Positions 851-60,134 of a stretch of DNA of 64,000 bases are shown piece by piece. Below the pieces are notes generated by a model that was given only the letters and a program-made list of their open reading frames with translations, had not been told where the DNA came from and searched no databases. Origin of the DNA: Minisyncoccia bacterium (GTDB taxonomy: Bacteria; Patescibacteriota; Minisyncoccia; Phycocordibacterales; DATDWN01); assembly GCA_049296855.1 (NCBI GenBank), contig JBAQTF010000010.1, positions 108,610 to 172,609 on the forward strand. The letters are read 5' to 3'. Position 1 is the first letter of the stretch. Every line of letters starts with the position of its first letter. A program made the position numbers and the translations under genes.

Positions 851-1039
851 TCGGCTTCCAAATTTGGCGAACTCCTTGTTTCGTATTGAAAAATTCTCGT
901 CACCGTACTGTTGTACGTCTCCTCTCATTTTCCAATTCTCAACATCGGATTTCATCCAGATTTGAAACCCTCCAAAACTTTATCTACTTGACAATACGTA
1001 CTTATGTATGTTACGCTTGTGGTTAGAAGGAGACTAACA

Positions 1040-6638: not shown

Positions 6639-6791
6639 AGAACTTCCAAATCTGGCGAATTTCTGTGTTCTCGGTTTTACTTACTCCACGCGCAGTACTC
6701 TAGTACAGCTTGGTCGCAAGCAAAACCTACGAACTTCGAAATTCATCTAGATTGTTAGAGTTTTTGTTACTATCACTTGCGGAGGAGATAC

Positions 6792-6983
6792 ATGTCTCAA
6801 GATCCAGTTTCGACACAGTCAGAAACAGCGAAGAAAAAGAAAGATCCGATCGATGTTCTGCGAGAACATATGGTTGGTGTCCAAGCATACGGGTATTCTT
6901 GGATGCATCCATCTGATATTGTGAGGGCAATCGATCAAGCAAAAAATGGAACACTGGGCCCATTCAAGCCAAATTTTTCGTAG
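6792..6983 (+). CDS. hypothetical small protein (64 aa)
   Basis: GGAGG lies 6 nt upstream of the ATG. A long hairpin terminator follows immediately at 6984-7035. Confidence 0.4.
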   Translation: MSQDPVSTQSETAKKKKDPIDVLREHMVGVQAYGYSWMHPSDIVRAIDQAKNGTLGPFKPNFS

Positions 6984-7035
6984 TCGCCTCGGGGGGAAAC
7001 CAAATCGGTTTCTCTCCGAGGCGGTTTTCTTTAAC
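6984..7035 (+). terminator. rho-independent terminator
   Basis: The outer stem cgcctcgg...ccgaggcg encloses a nested stem ggaaacc/ggtttc, and the tail is gttttctttaac. Confidence 0.6.
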
Positions 7036-10494: not shown

Positions 10495-10571
10495 TTTCGG
10501 TCTTTTCGCTCTATAAACTAAGAAACTCTTCAAGGTTCGACCTTGAAGTAGCAACGATGATATGCCTGATT

Positions 10572-10600
10572 GACATTCCTCTGGGTTTTGTATAGTATAA
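10572..10600 (+). promoter_or_regulatory. strong promoter TTGACA-N17-TAGTAT in the rplB-rpsS intergenic region
   Basis: The -35 TTGACA is at 10572-10577, the spacer is 17 nt, and the -10 TAGTAT is at 10595-10600. Confidence 0.55.
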
Positions 10601-10606
10601 ACGCCA

Positions 10607-10685
10607 CTAAGGCTATGAGCCTTTTTACATTCTGTTTGCGGTATTAGGTAAGTCAGTACCACTAACGATGTGGTTTTTGTTTTGA
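10607..10685 (+). ncRNA. candidate small RNA or leader transcript (about 80 nt)
   Basis: It starts just after the promoter above and ends at the hairpin ccac-taacgat-gtgg (10661-10675), which is followed by tttttgtttt. It contains no ORF. Confidence 0.3.
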
Positions 10686-10828
10686 CAAATAGGCAAAATG
10701 AATTCATCTGCGTTGTTGCTGTTCAATTTTGTTCATTCACCTTACTTTTGTAAGGCTTAATCACAAAATCTCCAGCACCTAGCATCTGAATCCATTTAGC
10801 CAATTTGTCTAAGTAGACAAATTAAAAA

Positions 10829-11179
10829 ATGACAAGATCATCCAAAAAAGGTCCATACGTTGACGAACGACTCCTTAAAAAGATTGAGGGCAAGAAATCC
10901 AGTGAAACTGGGGTTATTAAGACATGGTCACGAGCATGCGTAATCTCTCCTGAAATGGTTGGGTTTATTTTTGGTGTTCACAACGGCAAAACTCACATTG
11001 AAGTCTCTGTATCTGAAGACATGGTTGGTCACAGACTAGGTGAGTTCTCTCCAACAAAGAAATTCATAAAACACGGAGGTAAAATGCAGAAAGAGCTTGA
11101 GATGAAGAAGAAAGAAGGTGAAATCGCTTCTGCCCAATCTGCAAAAGCTACAACAGCGGAAGCTGGAGCTAAAAAATAA
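10829..11179 (+). CDS. rpsS: 30S ribosomal protein S19 with a K/A-rich C-terminal extension
   Basis: The S19 core is [12 protein letters not shown]...HNGKTHIEV. Confidence 0.9.
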
Positions 11180-14850: not shown

Positions 14851-15043
14851 TCGCTCTGGTCTTTTTGTTCGATTTCTTCGTTTTCAGTTTTGTTTCCTCC
14901 ACGCGCAGTACGATTTGTACAGCTTGGTCACAAACAAAACCTCAAGCCTCGAACTCGAACAAAAATCCGCAGAGCTTGCACAAGTAGTTTCGGTAAGTCT
15001 TTGTTCACTAGAACGAGATACTACCAAGATATAATACAAAAAT

Positions 15044-15449: not shown

Positions 15450-15983
15450 ATGTCACGTATAGGAAAAAAAGTAATAGCAATTCCAAAAGGTACAGAAGTA
15501 ACAATGTCTCCTGGTGTTATTACTGTAAAAGGACCTCTTGGAACTTTGACTAAGAAATTCAAAAATGAGATTGTCATTACTATTGGAGCGACTGAAATAA
15601 CACTTATACCAAAACGAGTCACTCTAGAAAACAAGGCTTTGTGGGGAACATATGCTTCTCACATTATGAATATGATAGATGGTGTTACAAAACCATATGT
15701 TAAGAAATTAATACTTGAAGGTATTGGATACAAATCAGAGGTAAAGGGTACGAACCTAGTTTTAGCTCTTGGTTTTTCACATCCAGTTATTGTGCCGATT
15801 CCAACTACACTAAAGGTGACAGCAGAAAAGAACGTAATAACTGCCACAGGTAGTGATAAAGAAGTCGTTGGTGAGTTCGTTGCAAAAGTTCGAGCACTGA
15901 AAAAACCTGAACCTTATAAAGGAAAGGGAATGAGATACGAAGGTGAGGTAATTAAACGCAAACAGGGCAAGAAAACTGCTTAA
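15450..15983 (+). CDS. rplF: 50S ribosomal protein L6
   Basis: The N-terminus MSRIGKKVIAIPKG is canonical for L6. Confidence 0.9.
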   Translation: MSRIGKKVIAIPKGTEVTMSPGVITVKGPLGTLTKKFKNEIVITIGATEITLIPKRVTLENKALWGTYASHIMNMIDGVTKPYVKKLILEGIGYKSEVKGTNLVLALGFSHPVIVPIPTTLKVTAEKNVITATGSDKEVVGEFVAKVRALKKPEPYKGKGMRYEGEVIKRKQGKKTA

Positions 15984-16013
15984 AATAATTTCTAATTTTC
16001 AATTTCTAAAAAA

Positions 16014-16364
16014 ATGAAATCATCAAGTTTAAAAAAAGAAAAGAGGACAAGACGACATGTAAGAATACGTGCAAATATTTCTGGTACAAGTGTAATACCT
16101 CGTCTTTCTATCTTTAAATCTAACAAACACGTATCAGCTCAACTTGTTGATGATGAAAAAAATGTAACAATAGCTGGTAGTCATTCACGCAATGTAAAAG
16201 GAAAAACTATGATGGAAAAGTCAGTGCTCGTTGGAGAAGATATTGCAAAGAAAGCAGAAGCCTTGAAAGTAAAAAAAGTCGTCTTCGATCGGGGAGGCTT
16301 TATATATACTGGATGTGTTAAAGCACTTGCAGACGGTGCACGCAAAGGAGGATTGAAATTTTAG
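16014..16364 (+). CDS. rplR: 50S ribosomal protein L18
   Basis: The L18 family sequence is recognisable. Confidence 0.85.
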   Translation: MKSSSLKKEKRTRRHVRIRANISGTSVIPRLSIFKSNKHVSAQLVDDEKNVTIAGSHSRNVKGKTMMEKSVLVGEDIAKKAEALKVKKVVFDRGGFIYTGCVKALADGARKGGLKF

Positions 16365-16390
16365 AAATTGAAAATTAGAAATTAATTACT

Positions 16391-18783: not shown

Positions 18784-19371
18784 ATGTCTCCACAAACTTT
18801 TGTTTTTATTGGACGGTCTGGTTGCGGAAAAGGAACACAGGCAGATCTGTTAATGAAAAAACTGAAAGAAAAACAGCCAGACGATTTTATTTTTTATCTT
18901 GAAACTGGTCAAAAATTCCGTGATTTCATTTCTGCCTCTGGATATTCAAACCAATTAGCAAAAACAATTCAAGATAAAGGTGCGTTGCAACCGTCTTTTC
19001 TGGCTGTCTGGATTTGGTCAGATATTTTAATAGAAAAATTAAGGAAAGATGACCATCTTTTCATCGATGGAACACCTAGAAAGCTTGGAGAAGCTATAAT
19101 ATTTTTTGAAGCTCTTAAATTTTATTCTCGAAAACCAAATGTTATATATATAAATGTTTCTCGTACATGGTCCGAGGAGCGCCTCTCTGAACGTCATCGA
19201 TCTGATGATATGTTTGCGCTAGTGAAAAAACGACTAGACTGGTTTGATTCAGAAGTTATGCCAGCAGTTGAATATTTCAAAGATAGTTTAGATGTTAATT
19301 TTTTTGATGTAAATGGTGAGAGGTCTATAGAAGATATTCATACCGACATTGTCTCAAAGCTAAAATGGTAA
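18784..19371 (+). CDS. adk: adenylate kinase
   Basis: It has the P-loop GRSGCGKGTQ. Confidence 0.85.
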   Translation: MSPQTFVFIGRSGCGKGTQADLLMKKLKEKQPDDFIFYLETGQKFRDFISASGYSNQLAKTIQDKGALQPSFLAVWIWSDILIEKLRKDDHLFIDGTPRKLGEAIIFFEALKFYSRKPNVIYINVSRTWSEERLSERHRSDDMFALVKKRLDWFDSEVMPAVEYFKDSLDVNFFDVNGERSIEDIHTDIVSKLKW

Positions 19372-19531
19372 AATAGTTGAAATTATCTCATCTGCGTTGT
19401 TGCTAGTTTTATTTTTTCCGTGCGCAGTAGGTTTACTACAGCTTGGTCAAAAATAAAACGTCGCGCCTAGCATCTGAAACAATTTCAACTATTTTACAAG
19501 TACCAAATTTCATGTAATGTAATGATATAAC

Positions 19532-24941: not shown

Positions 24942-25025
24942 AAAAAGAAGTATAACGCAGGAGACGGATTAACCAGTTGTTTATTACAAAACAAAAACTC
25001 CTATTCGGGAGTTTTTGTTAATTTG

Positions 25026-25421
25026 TGGAGAAGGAGAGAATTGAACTCTCGTGCAAATAAGATTTGATAATGTTTCTACACGACGTATTCAATTTAATTT
25101 TCTCGACTTCTATTCTTTAAATTGAAAAAATAAACAGAAGTCCAGTTTTCTTTTTCTCGAAACTAACTCGAAACTAAGTTAGCTTCCAGTCCGATGATAT
25201 ATCAATCACTTACCGTAACAGACTTAGGGTAGTGACCGCTCACTGAGTTTAATCTAAAAGATTAGACGAAAGCGAGAGCAAACTCATTCGCCATAAATGG
25301 TGAACGAACTGCTTTTGCAAAGGTGTTTTTAGCATCTATGCTTTGAAGCCTTTTAAAGAGTTACTCCAGCTCTGTCGTGCACATTGTCAAAGAATTTATC
25401 TGTCTAAACCTGTCATCCCCC
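25026..25421 (-). ncRNA. ssrA: tmRNA (ssrA)
   Basis: On the minus strand the T-arm GAGAG-TTCAATT-CTCTC is followed by CTTCTCCA, giving an acceptor 3' strand and a discriminator A. The 5' end is GGGGGAU, which provides the G3.U pair. A tag reading frame encodes ANEFALAFV* (25262-25291). The gene lies next to smpB. Confidence 0.6.
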
Positions 25422-28280: not shown

Positions 28281-28377
28281 GCCGACATTCATTACGAGTG
28301 TCGGCCTATCGCTTTGTTTATTAATTCATTTTTCATAAAGTATGCTAATTTGTTATAGTTACCTTGTACCAAATCCG

Positions 28378-28451
28378 CCTGTAGCTCAGTTGGTTAGAGC
28401 ATCGAGCTTATACCTCGAGGGTCCCACGTTCGAGTCGTGGCAGGCGGACAA
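28378..28451 (+). tRNA. tRNA-Ile with anticodon UAU
   Basis: The molecule folds as a cloverleaf. The acceptor stem is CCGCCTG/CAGGCGG, the D-arm is GCTC-AGTTGGTTA-GAGC, the anticodon stem-loop is TCGAG-CTTATAC-CTCGA, and the T-arm is CCACG-TTCGAGT-CGTGG. The discriminator is A and CCA is not encoded. Confidence 0.8.
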
Positions 28452-36561: not shown

Positions 36562-36722
36562 TAAAAAATTAAAACAACATTCGAAAACGACACGTTAGAA
36601 CTTTCACAATCTGGATACAGTTCTAGGCGGAAAGGTAAATGGGCAAGGAGACGTACATGTGGTACGTTGACGAGAATATTTGCCTTTCCAACAACGAAAT
36701 GTGCCAGATTTGGAAGTTCTAA

Positions 36723-49558: not shown

Positions 49559-49993
49559 ATGAAATACCAAGTACCACAATTTATAGATGTGGAGGACAAA
49601 ATAGTCGGCCCTTTTACTGTAAAACAATTCATTTATGTCGTCGGTGGGGCGGGAATGGCTTTTATTATATACAGATTTCTACCAATATACATATCTGTAA
49701 TACTCTTAGCTGTGACAATCCCTCTTTCTCTAGCACTAGCTTTTTATAAAGTAAATAACAAACCTTTTATTGACTTTCTTGAGTCAGCTTTTCTCTACTA
49801 CACAAAAAACAACTTATACATCTGGAAAAAGGAGGAGAAAAAGATTGCGGAGTCGGAAATCAAAGCGACCAGAATGACACAAGTTCATGTTCCAAGACTT
49901 TCTGACAGTAAATTAAAAGAGCTTTCGTGGTCGCTCGATATTAATGAAAATCTAAATCCACTTACAGGTGATGACGGAAAGAATACCAAATAA
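49559..49993 (+). CDS. PrgI/VirB3-like small membrane protein
   Basis: The protein is 144 aa and has a hydrophobic hairpin (VVGGAGMAFIIY...ILLAVTIPLSLALAF). Its start codon overlaps the stop of the preceding gene, and a VirB4-like gene lies downstream. Confidence 0.4.
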   Translation: MKYQVPQFIDVEDKIVGPFTVKQFIYVVGGAGMAFIIYRFLPIYISVILLAVTIPLSLALAFYKVNNKPFIDFLESAFLYYTKNNLYIWKKEEKKIAESEIKATRMTQVHVPRLSDSKLKELSWSLDINENLNPLTGDDGKNTK

Positions 49994-50070
49994 TTTCTAA
50001 TTTCTAGTTCATTAAAACCGTAGTTTTTAGAAATTGAAAATTAGAAATTACTTTATGTTATAATAAAATC

Positions 50071-57456: not shown

Positions 57457-58806
57457 ATGGTACCCATGATAGAAAATAAGAAACTCTGGGATAGTGTTTT
57501 AGTTGAGATGGAATTAAATCTTTCTAAACCCAACTTCAACACATGGTTTAAAGACACTCACATAATCAAACATGAAGATGGCACTATCTATCTTGGAGTT
57601 CCAAACACTTTTGTTCAAGACTGGCTCGGAAGTAAGTTCCATAACTCAATACTAAAAGCACTACGTGGTATTTCTCAAAACGTTCAATCTCTACAATATG
57701 TAATTTCAAAAGATGAGGTGAAGGAAAAACAGACACAGGACAAACCAATTCAACAAACAAAAGAGCTACCAATCCAAGATACTTATATAAACAAGGAAGA
57801 TAACCTCAATCCTCGCTATACTTTTGAGAATTTTGTTGTGGGACCGTTCAATGAATTCGCTAATGCAGCCTCTCAAGCAATCATTAAAAAACCTGGGATC
57901 GTATATAATCCTCTTTTTATCTATGGTGGAACCGGTCACGGAAAAACACACCTGATCCAAGCTATTGGAAATCATTTAAAAAATTCGAGTAATAAAAAAG
58001 TCTTTTATACTACTTCAGAAAAGTTTTTTCAGGAGTATGTAAATGCACTTCAACTAAACAAGCCAAACTTTTTTAAAGAAAAATACAGAAAATACGATGT
58101 TCTTATTATGGATGACATCCAGTTTTTCTCTGGGAAAATGCAAGCACAGGAACAACTATTTCATTTATTCAACCATTTATATGAAAACAATAAACAAATC
58201 ATATTTTCGTCAGATAAACACCCCGGTCTCATCCAAGATCTAGAGGAAAGAATGAAATCGAGATTTAGTGCTGGTATGGTTGTGGACATACCCACACCAG
58301 ATAACGAGTCCAGAGTTGCTATTATCAAGTCAAAATCAAGTAATACAGCTTATCCATTCTCAAAAGAAGTTGTGGAGTATCTAGCTTATTCCATTGTTGG
58401 AAATATAAGAGAACTTGAGGGTATTATCAACTCTATTACATGTCAGTCCGAACTTAAAGGACGGGAATTGTCACTATCTGAGGTCAAAAATTTTGTAAAA
58501 AACAACACAAAACCCAAAAAATTAGCCTCTACTAAAGAAGTAGTAAAAACTGTGGCTGAATTCTATAACATAGAAGAGCAACTTATTTATGATAAAACTC
58601 GTAAAAAAGAAGTTATTAAACCCAGACAGATAATAATGTATATCCTACGTGAAGACTTTAACATCTCGTATCCTGCTATAGGAGAGAAGCTTGGTGGGAG
58701 AGACCACACAACAGTCATGCATTCGTGTGAAAAGATAAAAAATGATATGAAGGGTGATGATATGCTTATACAAGAAATAAATCAACTTCGATCTATTTTT
58801 GTGTAA
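57457..58806 (+). CDS. dnaA: chromosomal replication initiator DnaA
   Basis: It has an AAA+ Walker A motif (GGTGHGKTHL) and a C-terminal DNA-binding domain. Confidence 0.95.
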   Translation: MVPMIENKKLWDSVLVEMELNLSKPNFNTWFKDTHIIKHEDGTIYLGVPNTFVQDWLGSKFHNSILKALRGISQNVQSLQYVISKDEVKEKQTQDKPIQQTKELPIQDTYINKEDNLNPRYTFENFVVGPFNEFANAASQAIIKKPGIVYNPLFIYGGTGHGKTHLIQAIGNHLKNSSNKKVFYTTSEKFFQEYVNALQLNKPNFFKEKYRKYDVLIMDDIQFFSGKMQAQEQLFHLFNHLYENNKQIIFSSDKHPGLIQDLEERMKSRFSAGMVVDIPTPDNESRVAIIKSKSSNTAYPFSKEVVEYLAYSIVGNIRELEGIINSITCQSELKGRELSLSEVKNFVKNNTKPKKLASTKEVVKTVAEFYNIEEQLIYDKTRKKEVIKPRQIIMYILREDFNISYPAIGEKLGGRDHTTVMHSCEKIKNDMKGDDMLIQEINQLRSIFV

Positions 58807-59033
58807 AACATTGTTTATATTATGTTGATAAGATATTTATAATATATTAATAAATAAAGGATAGAGTGTGGACGACTTGTTTATTTATTTAAATAGTATT
58901 AGGTTATACACATAGATAACTAATTTATACATGTAGGTATTTTAAAAAAATGGCTTATAATATAGATATATTATAAATATCCACAATTACACACCTATAG
59001 TAATAATTAGATCTTAAAAAAACAAAAAATATT
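58807..59033. promoter_or_regulatory. oriC / AT-rich DNA unwinding region with DnaA boxes between dnaA and dnaN
   Basis: TTATACACA is at 58904-58912, aTATCCACA is at 58977-58985 and TTACACACC is at 58987-58995. The region is extremely AT-rich. Confidence 0.55.
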
Positions 59034-60134
59034 ATGAATATAGAATGTATTAAAGAAAAATTAGTTTACGCTATATCTAAAGCGGAAAGAATTACTGGTA
59101 AAAATATAACCCTACCAGTTTTAAGTTGTGTTTTATTAGAAGCTAATAATTCTTTATTAACTATTAAAGCAACAAATCTTGATATTGGTATAGAGATCAC
59201 TCTTCCTGTAAAAGTTATTAAACCAGGTGTTGTAGCTGTTCCTGGGTCAATTTTATATAATTTTATTTCTAATATAACAAATGATAAAAATATTATATTG
59301 GAAGTTGTTGGTGGAAATTTAAAAATACAAACAAAACATTCAGAGTCTATTATAAAAACTTTTCCTATTGATGATTTTCCAAATATTCCAAAAGTTTTAA
59401 ATAATACACCTTTTACATTTAATATACCAAGTTTAATAAAAGGCTTTAAGTCGGTGATGTATAGTTCATCCGTTTCTACAATAAGACCAGTTTTATCTAG
59501 TGTACTAGTTGCTTCAGATGGTGATAGTATAAATTTTGTTGCGACAGATTCATTTAGGTTATCAGAAAAAAGAATCGGAGTAAAAAAACCAAAAGAGTTT
59601 AATCAAATACTCATTCCATTTAAAAACATTCCTGAAATAATTAGAACGTTAGAAGATATTAAAGAAGATGTTAGTGTTTGTTTAAATGATAATCAAATAT
59701 CTTTCTCACACAATGATATCTACATAACATCACGCGTTATTGATGGTGTTTTTCCTGATTATAAACAAATTATTCCAAAGGAAACAAAAACTGAAGTTAT
59801 TGTTTTAAAGCAAGATTTTATTAGTTCACTTAAAATATCCAATATTTTTTCTGATAAATTTAGTCAGGTGGTGTTTAATATATCACCAAAAAACAAGACA
59901 TTTAAAATAACCACCAAAAACATGGATATTGGAGAGAATATTAATACTCTAGACGCTGTTATAAAAGGGGATGAGATTAATATAAGTTTTAACTATAAAT
60001 ACATAATAGATTGTTTCCAATCGATTGATTCAGACAGTATCTCATTGTCTTTTTCTGATGTCAGTAAGCCCATGGTTATTAGGGGTGTGGGGGATAAAAG
60101 TTTTTTGTATCTTGTCATGCCTATGAATAAATAA
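59034..60134 (+). CDS. dnaN: DNA polymerase III beta sliding clamp
   Basis: It has the three-domain clamp architecture and follows dnaA. Confidence 0.9.
   Translation: MNIECIKEKLVYAISKAERITGKNITLPVLSCVLLEANNSLLTIKATNLDIGIEITLPVKVIKPGVVAVPGSILYNFISNITNDKNIILEVVGGNLKIQTKHSESIIKTFPIDDFPNIPKVLNNTPFTFNIPSLIKGFKSVMYSSSVSTIRPVLSSVLVASDGDSINFVATDSFRLSEKRIGVKKPKEFNQILIPFKNIPEIIRTLEDIKEDVSVCLNDNQISFSHNDIYITSRVIDGVFPDYKQIIPKETKTEVIVLKQDFISSLKISNIFSDKFSQVVFNISPKNKTFKITTKNMDIGENINTLDAVIKGDEINISFNYKYIIDCFQSIDSDSISLSFSDVSKPMVIRGVGDKSFLYLVMPMNK

Follow-up and report, generated by a model that had tools for sequence, protein, structure and literature searches.

The locus

The stretch of DNA analysed here, 64,000 nucleotides long and referred to below as the window, comes from a CPR bacterium and represents its str-S10-spc ribosomal-protein region; the RplB encoded there is 91% identical to that of MAGs labelled Minisyncoccia, Parcubacteria, Zambryskibacteria or Paceibacterota. 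The junction between rplB and rpsS in bacteria normally measures only a few bases; in the window the gap from the end of rplB (10494) to the start of rpsS (10829) is 334 nt. It holds a promoter-like site with a leader, followed by a long imperfect hairpin designated element D. The features of the gap and the gene that follows it are listed below.

10570 to 10683, plus strand: rpsS promoter-like site TTGACA-17-TAGTAT (10570-10598) and the conserved leader behind it, delimited by comparison with relatives
10684 to 10809, plus strand: element D, the full imperfect hairpin with the copy-specific outer stem GACAAAT/ATTTGTC, from its fold, a covariance model and relatives
10692 to 10800, plus strand: element D proper, with bounds set by homology with copy C
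10704 to 10720, plus strand: 5'-arm motif TCATCTGCGTTGTTGCT, identical in copy C
10740 to 10755, plus strand: apical hairpin CCTTAC-TTTT-GTAAGG (10740-45, 46-49 and 50-55), the 'beta' variant of the apical module, from the sequence and the family alignment
10778 to 10790, plus strand: 3'-arm motif CCTAGCATCTGAA, identical in copy C and paired with the 5'-arm motif
10815 to 10821, plus strand: second direct copy of GACAAAT, the native sequence before the rpsS start in relatives
10829 to 11179, plus strand: rpsS (S19), the gene downstream of element D

In the window the rpsS leader contains two terminator-like hairpins (10609-10623 and 10658-10674), the second of which is directly followed by TTTTTGTTTTG. 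The leader and the promoter-like site have no Rfam match, and the ~85-nt leader with its two hairpins is a candidate ribosomal-protein leader or attenuator. A second conserved leader, of ~60 nt (AGTYTRGGTAAGTC...GAGAWACTRCC.AGATATAAT; 14976-15043 in the window), is present in the rpsN-rpsH spacer of most close relatives and may be an S8 autoregulatory site; GGTAAGTC is common to this leader and that of rpsS.

Elsewhere in the window lie a tmRNA gene (25023-25420, minus strand), a tRNA-Ile gene with anticodon TAT (28375-28449, plus strand) and dnaA with dnaN (57457-60134). The GC skew is positive on both sides of the latter and has no sign switch, so that a replication origin is not evident from the skew in the window. 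A separate AT-rich repeat, TTTTAGAAATTGAAAATTAGAAATTA, is found at 15981-16012, 16359-16387 and 49983-50055; it brackets an ORF (16014-16364) in inverted orientation and recurs near 50 kb.

Element D is a single long hairpin

A preliminary description of this DNA had reported two end motifs at element D and a second element with the same ends at 19389-19478. Both motifs were found: TCATCTGCGTTGTTGCT is at 10704-10720, and its sole other match in the 64 kb at up to three mismatches is at 19388-19404 (chance expectation 0.11), while CCTAGCATCTGAA is exact at 10778-10790 and at 19466-19478. The second copy therefore holds both motifs as described, but its TCATCTGCGTTGTTGCT begins one base earlier, at 19388. 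Taken alone, CCTAGCATCTGAA is not rare at up to two mismatches (1.37 expected); the two motifs keep their order, with similar spacing, in both exact copies (C and D), and chance similarity of these copies is excluded. The hairpin CCTTAC-TTTT-GTAAGG was also located at 10740-10755, as had been claimed.

The motifs were described as separate ends of an element extending over 10704-10790; they are instead the opposite arms of one hairpin, and the element is wider, reaching from 10684 to 10809. The CATCTG that had been noticed in both motifs arises from TTCA-TC-TGC in the 5' arm pairing with GCA-TC-TGAA in the 3' arm, and represents two short helices (in TCATCTGCGTTGTTGCT, TTCA/TGAA and TGC/GCA) around a TC/TC internal loop. 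TCATCTGCGTTGTTGCT also contains the GTTG box that is found throughout the family described below. Folding, which had been suggested as a check, gave a minimum free energy of -43.2 kcal/mol for 10684-10809 against -20.2 +/- 3.0 kcal/mol for shuffled sequences (z = -7.7), and the family covariance model matches element D at 10689-10802 with 73.4 bits (E = 2e-15).

Element D proper has TA (10690-91) as its left-hand and AA (10801-02) as its right-hand flanking dinucleotide. In copies C and D alike, the flanking dinucleotide and the shared motif are 12 nt apart at the 5' end and 11 nt apart at the 3' end. Beyond the dinucleotides lie complementary flanks of 6 nt, GACAAA/TTTGTC at D and GTAAAA/TTTTAC at C. 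GACAAAT occurs three times around element D, directly at 10684-90, inverted at 10803-09 and again directly at 10815-21, and the element ends 20 nt before the rpsS start codon, within the rpsS 5' UTR. The outermost stem is made of sequence that is native in the flanks of relatives, namely GACAAAT at D and GTAA..TTAC at C (19368-19375 with 19490-19497). The outermost stems at C and D would be either TA-centred palindromic targets or the result of a palindrome extended into its flanks after insertion. That outer stems are leftovers of earlier target hairpins was rejected, as no such palindrome is present at empty rpsN-rpsH sites; pre-existing target hairpins were likewise dismissed at the tuf site, where the small hairpins look like deletion remnants and not virgin targets.

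Some other candidates were tried and set aside. A decayed copy right after rplB (GGTCTTTTCGCTC, ~10505) gave alignment scores inside the range of shuffled sequences. On inspection, none of the hammerhead (CUGAUGA), twister, pistol, K-turn and loop-E cores fits the sequence of element D. The hairpin does not qualify as an intrinsic terminator, since no U-tract or T-run follows copies B, C, D, E or F.

Six copies in the window form a mosaic family

Repeat finding and alignment indicated that copy C also resembles an element after tuf (A) and one between rpsN and rpsH (B). A single covariance model, R1, was built from 14 aligned copies of the window and its relatives. Run on the window without filters, R1 gives six copies, with 118.6, 98.3, 93.5, 73.4, 35.2 and 31.6 bits; copies A to D were recovered at 73-119 bits, and E and F were added. 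The copies other than D are as follows.

851 to 972, plus strand: copy E (R1 match 853-967), directly after the stop of rpsG (S7), with type-1 arms and a 'gamma' apex
6639 to 6763, plus strand: copy A, directly after the TAG stop of tuf, with type-1 arms (AGAACTTCCAAATCTGG...) and an alpha apex
14853 to 14975, plus strand: copy B, in rpsN-rpsH and starting at the rpsN stop codon, with type-2 arms (GGTCTTTTTGTTCGA...) and an alpha apex
19376 to 19489, plus strand: copy C, between adk and map, with arms as in D and the 'alpha' apical module
36595 to 36722, minus strand: copy F (R1 match 36602-36718), 2 nt after the stop of a minus-strand Peptidase_M23/LysM gene, with a gamma apex

Copies A to D all fold as hairpins of 110-125 nt (z = -2.4, -5.9, -6.7 and -7.7, the last being D). 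Copy C is flanked by TA on either side, and further out by its complementary GTAAAA/TTTTAC, and copy F has the termini ttTA-GAACTTCC...GGAAGTTC-TAa. Between the element after tuf and a GC-rich hairpin at 6983-7030, which precedes the next promoter-like site, lies a small ORF (6793-6983) with a GGAGG ribosome-binding site.

The family is an imperfect hairpin of ~110-130 nt in which the inner boxes (..TTTCTNCGTTG.. / ..GCGCCTNGAAC..) are conserved and the apical module comes in several homologous variants; its outer stems are copy-specific in sequence but still complementary. The inner boxes and the apex are the most conserved parts and the outermost stems the most variable, though these are always paired. 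In the 14-copy alignment 82% of cells are paired, a share that falls to 35-48% on sliding the partners, and both sides are altered in 18 pairs; in an alignment of 66 metagenome copies the corresponding values are 80% and 35-45%, with 26 of 35 pairs changing on both sides.

Arms and apices are combined freely among the copies. Type-1 arms are common to A, E and F, the arms of B differ, and C and D have a third kind; the apical module CCACGCGCAGTAC-loop-GTACAGCTTGGTC is held in common by A, B and C, the apex CTCGTCAcCGTAC..GTACGTCTCC by E and F, and D has CCTTAC..GTAAGG. The centre of D had been called unrelated to that of C. It is a diverged homologue that occupies the same alignment columns: GCTT, TC and the inner T-A/A-T pairs are kept, and CC/GG is replaced by TT/AA in a compensatory manner. 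The D subtype CCTTAY...RTAAGG with similar flanking loops is also found in the relative L005 (3880-3993), and a related form in elements after tuf of five others (L004, L009, L021, L022 and L025).

No ORF is present inside the element, and no Rfam match to it reaches the gathering threshold; the scan of the window yields only tmRNA and tRNA, and E-value-mode scans of D and B only miRNA matches at chance level. Nested extra hairpins or insertions occur in some copies (L152 5032-5149, L103 3540-3654, L134 199-386, L097 634-784 and L006 19708-19900), which suggests that the elements are themselves insertion targets or grow internally.

Element D is an insertion in the rpsS leader

Eighty relatives (loci L001-L080) were taken with 10-kb flanks, and the region upstream of rpsS was compared in 19 of them. 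The rplB-rpsS gap ranges from 52 to 9692 nt among the relatives and contains 0-12 unrelated ORFs; the junction (10495-10828 in the window) is a hypervariable insertion hot spot in the clade. An ORF of ~230 aa recurs just before rpsS in more distant relatives, often preceded by one of ~185 aa.

Common to most of the 19 relatives are the promoter-like TTGACAT-N17-TATAGTAT and the ~85-nt leader, which ends with the hairpin TACCAC-TAACAAT-GTGG and then TTTTTGTTTTG. In four of them (L021, L018, L005 and L016) the leader continues directly into (G/A)ACAAATTAAAAT-ATG, and L010 and L024 have a similar short A-rich spacer, so that in six relatives in total the leader abuts the rpsS start; the remainder of the 19 have short extra hairpins or short unrelated inserts before rpsS. 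In the window, a hairpin of ~125 nt stands between TTTTG and the rpsS start region. Presence or absence of this insert in relatives had been named as a check: a ~125-nt insert of the D type is present in none of the 19 on the 5' side of rpsS, and R1 has no match at the position of D in any of the 80 loci. Since it is absent from the rpsS leader of the relatives compared, element D is a lineage-specific insertion.

It has been proposed that D is either a MITE-like element or a conserved bipartite regulatory RNA of the rplB-rpsS junction. The first part of this proposal is supported, given a dispersed family and an insert that the relatives compared lack; the second is not, as what the junction conserves is the promoter and the ~85-nt leader upstream of D, and not D. 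A dedicated cis-regulatory element of rpsS, in the form of a bipartite leader RNA bound by a ribosomal protein, would suit the position of D in the rpsS 5' UTR, downstream of a promoter-like site and terminator-like hairpins. However, relatives retain the promoter and leader without D, homologous copies follow unrelated genes, and D shows neither the syntenic conservation of a ribosomal-protein leader nor a match to a curated cis-regulatory model of Rfam, so that such a role is highly improbable. Element D is best read as a selfish-DNA-type insertion in the rpsS leader and not as a dedicated regulator of rpsS.

Distribution, empty sites and decay

The search for further copies that had been recommended was productive: in addition to the six of the window, R1 found 33 in relatives and ~90 in metagenomes. 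The 33 copies are all in the closest relatives (L001-L025 and L039), on both strands and at varying positions, with up to four per 20-kb locus. The rpsN-rpsH site is filled in the window, L001 and L010 and empty in most relatives; the outer stems of these three elements differ, and each is fully paired. Similarly, the adk-map site is filled in the window and empty in most relatives.

In many relatives a full copy separates the tuf stop codon from a canonical terminator (CAAAAAACCACC-GAAA-GGTGGTTTTTTG); in others only outer-stem remnants are left after tuf, e.g. AACTTCCAAATCT-AAAA-AGATTG or AAACTT-TAAT-AAGTTT, which fits an internal deletion of the palindrome. Copies and remnants at this site are always upstream of the separate canonical terminator.

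A scan of metagenomes with the apical core (GCGCAGTA-N5-8-TACAGCTTGGTC) gave at least 120 contigs. The ~90 copies are on the 80 metagenome contigs searched with R1, and the GC content of the elements ranges from 31 to 60%; because this sample was chosen by the exact apical core, the apparent conservation of the core is inflated. A clean empty allele showing TA duplication was not recovered among the compared sites. Carriage by phages was discarded, as the single viral match is a 29-nt core inside a phage ORF and is due to chance.

Copies are anchored at stop codons

Among 74 metagenome copies, 55 follow a gene in the same orientation, and the start of 42 of these falls between -15 and +14 nt relative to that gene's stop codon. 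In the same sample a stop codon is abutted by the 5' end in 42 copies and by the 3' end in 2, and the distance to the downstream gene is broad. Copies of the window and the relatives show the same behaviour, to which F conforms on the minus strand, and some copies are antisense to, or upstream of, genes. The upstream genes have diverse housekeeping roles and encode S7, S18, SSB, HU, RecA, SecY, SecG, GyrB, DEAD-box helicases, aldolase and ATP synthase subunit c, and copies recur after rpsG across many divergent contigs. With regard to replication direction as a possible cause of the orientation, the GC skew has no switch and F follows its own minus-strand gene; the evidence leans towards transcription.

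The termini are frequently TA-G(G/A)AC...GT(C/T)C-TA, e.g. ataTA-GGACTTACGC...GCGTAAGTCC-TAt. TA-RRAY...RTYY-TA is present on both sides in 30 of 112 copies, and the motif is found on the 5' side in 43 and on the 3' side in 42 of the 112, compared with 3 and 9 in displaced control windows; as TA is palindromic, the flanking TA could belong to the inverted repeat itself. Copies C and F and several metagenome copies have TA on both sides; at D the two flanking dinucleotides are TA and AA. Outside the TA, complementarity of the flanks is frequent too, with sequences that vary among copies. TA followed by G reads TAG, and therefore insertion into the TA of a stop codon preserves the stop.

The orientation bias bears on the reading of the family. 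A tie of 42 to 2 between orientation and stop codons is not predicted by a symmetric TA-targeting transposon. One alternative is that the family is a functional or exapted structured RNA module of 3' UTRs and leaders, in which case D would modulate the rpsS mRNA. A long hairpin with conserved pyrimidine-rich internal loops, directly after stop codons, could serve as an RNase III-type processing site, a 3'-exonuclease barrier or a C-rich, G-poor Rho entry site. In agreement with this, the sense orientation to the upstream gene is strongly favoured, rpsG is followed by a copy in many divergent contigs, and conservation of the inner boxes and apex extends across elements of widely differing GC content while the stems covary. 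Nevertheless, the selection of the metagenome sample inflates this conservation; D is missing at the orthologous site of the relatives compared; most sites are filled sporadically; copies decay into remnants; and some are antisense to or upstream of genes.

A different alternative sees in the elements structure-recognised sites of single-stranded DNA recombination, similar to attC or to RAYT/HUH-REP systems, on one folded strand of which a tyrosine or HUH recombinase would act. It would account for the fixed orientation immediately downstream of ORFs, the conserved boxes around a variable centre, the variable but paired stems, the length of 110-130 nt, within the range of attC and Vibrio cholerae repeats (VCR), and the terminal AAC (5') and GTT (3') with the polarity of attC. 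On the other hand, the termini (e.g. TTAGAAC/GTTCTAA) misfit RYYYAAC/GTTRRRY, the conserved GTAG or CGTC head is absent, no integrase or RAYT was seen, and the neighbours are core housekeeping genes (tuf, rpsG, rpsN, adk, ssb, recA, gyrB) and not promoterless cassettes.

Strand asymmetry and the level at which pairing is kept

For 37 of 38 copies, folding favours the complement of the mRNA strand (-49.9 vs -37.4 kcal/mol), and mismatches at model pairs of the sense strand are pyrimidine-pyrimidine in 283 cases and purine-purine in 39. The better antisense folding arises because these pyrimidine-rich mismatches were inherited by the whole family. Hence, although one strand is markedly more foldable, as expected for a single-stranded DNA site, the asymmetry stems from inherited loops and is not independent wobble evidence; together with the misfits listed above, this makes a recombination site of that kind quite improbable.

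Paired columns of the sense strand contain 170 G-U and 107 A-C combinations, with a few fixed positions in either class. As the ratio of G-U to A-C singles out no strand, the strand asymmetry was not taken to indicate an antisense RNA or a site in the bottom strand of the DNA. For an RNA module speak alternations between G-U and Watson-Crick pairs at several fixed pairs of the sense strand, and a sense strand that is C-rich and G-poor (986 C vs 630 G). Against it, A-C mismatches are not much rarer than G-U, unlike in typical RNA families, and the complementary strand would fold ~12 kcal/mol better. Overall, an RNA module appears possible but rather unlikely. The pairing may be maintained at the level of RNA or of single-stranded DNA, or it may be kept up by a process acting on the DNA, e.g. 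arm-to-arm correction.

Proposed origin and spread

Repetition, homology, hairpin architecture, insertion polymorphism, decay, mosaicism and stop-codon anchoring are all observed in the family. Its members are short (110-130 nt) and non-coding, their arms are paired along the entire length, and the many dispersed copies vary in their presence at orthologous sites (those of D, B and C). Overall, it is probable that element D is a copy of a non-autonomous, palindromic, MITE- or REP-like repeat family specific to a Paceibacteria/Zambryskibacteria (CPR) clade.

One possible scheme is that copies spread by cut- or copy-and-paste at TA dinucleotides, with an enzyme supplied in trans. The TA of a stop codon may be a preferred or the best-tolerated landing site because TA and G restore a TAG stop. 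Recombination between copies would shuffle arms and apical modules, and would lead to copies such as C and D with identical arms and different centres. In the window, transcription from the rpsS promoter presumably includes D, which would form a fold of its own within the 5' UTR; since this would leave the start region free, D would be tolerated and not required.

With regard to the enzyme, no transposase domain was found in 10 candidate ORFs of the window, and no transposase with matching ends in the window. Half-element HMMs detected no widely spaced end pairs (>160 nt), such as an autonomous IS with matching ends would have, in ~1.9 Mb of related DNA. In ordinary MITEs, the termini are the most conserved part. 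The combination seen here, with outer stems that vary but pair and with the inner boxes and apex conserved, is more usual in a nucleic-acid module that is recognised by its structure. That the family as a whole is such a module, genome-wide in Paceibacteria and not merely selfish DNA, is doubtful. If true, it would mean that a hairpin with a conserved core sits in fixed orientation exactly at the stop codons of genes that are highly expressed or have housekeeping roles. The hairpin would serve either in the mRNA, as a signal for the 3' end, for processing or for Rho entry, or as a recombination site formed by one folded strand in the manner of attC. Its outer stems would then be made from flanking sequence at insertion or by extension of the palindrome.

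The non-autonomous repeat that is favoured here is of interest for several reasons. CPR/Patescibacteria genomes are small and streamlined, and are usually called poor in mobile DNA. In one CPR clade, a hairpin repeat has colonised even the core ribosomal-protein operons, where it splits intergenic spacers that in other bacteria measure only a few bases. For annotation, the family accounts for long gaps in the str, S10 and spc clusters that would otherwise be puzzling, and it cautions against taking conserved motifs as gene-specific regulators. Anchoring at stop codons, a 42:2 bias and a conserved core with free but paired stems make the family a tractable case for how palindromic repeats choose their sites and whether hosts domesticate them.

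Comparison with known repeat families

Neither an Rfam model nor a paper was found for this hairpin-repeat family, which is previously undescribed; literature searches on MITEs or hairpin repeats of CPR bacteria yielded nothing specific to it.

RUP of Streptococcus pneumoniae and Correia/NEMIS of Neisseria are MITEs mobilised by IS630-type transposases. The present family is like them in being non-coding elements in the range of 100-160 nt whose halves pair into a long hairpin, with many dispersed copies beside genes and mosaic subfamilies; TA at both junctions, which many copies of the present family have, and co-transcription with neighbouring genes, which is presumed for it, are further similarities. 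The TA-GRAC...GTYC-TA termini of many copies also resemble those of MITEs derived from IS630/Tc1-mariner elements, such as RUP and Correia. In contrast to these, no cognate transposase or matching IS ends were found for the family, its outermost stems are copy-specific, and it has a strong orientation bias, stop-codon anchoring, a CPR host and an unrelated sequence.

Like the ERIC/IRU elements of enterobacteria, the family consists of imperfect palindromes (~127 bp in ERIC) in transcribed intergenic regions, which are present or absent at orthologous sites and have internal insertions in a conserved core. There is no sequence relationship between the two, and anchoring at stop codons is not known for ERIC elements.

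Integron attC sites (60-140 nt) share with the family an imperfect inverted repeat directly after an ORF in fixed orientation, a recognition that is apparently by structure over sequence, a variable centre and one strand that folds better. The family differs from them in its core-gene neighbours, in the absence of an integrase or cassette array, and in its termini: TAGRAC...GTYCTA shares only AAC/GTT with the R-box consensus RYYYAAC...GTTRRRY.

The general properties of MITEs, and those of REPs, have been summarised (PMC3733652). [quoted passage not shown] REPs are 20-40 nt long, have a conserved GTAG or CGTC head and are associated with RAYTs (PMC3733652). In the present family, elements of 110-130 nt have no conserved tetranucleotide head, conservation is also lacking at the base preceding the terminal TAG, and a RAYT was not seen. 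Therefore, while it shares no sequence with any of these systems, in its behaviour the family is closest to RUP and Correia, and also to ERIC and the REPs.
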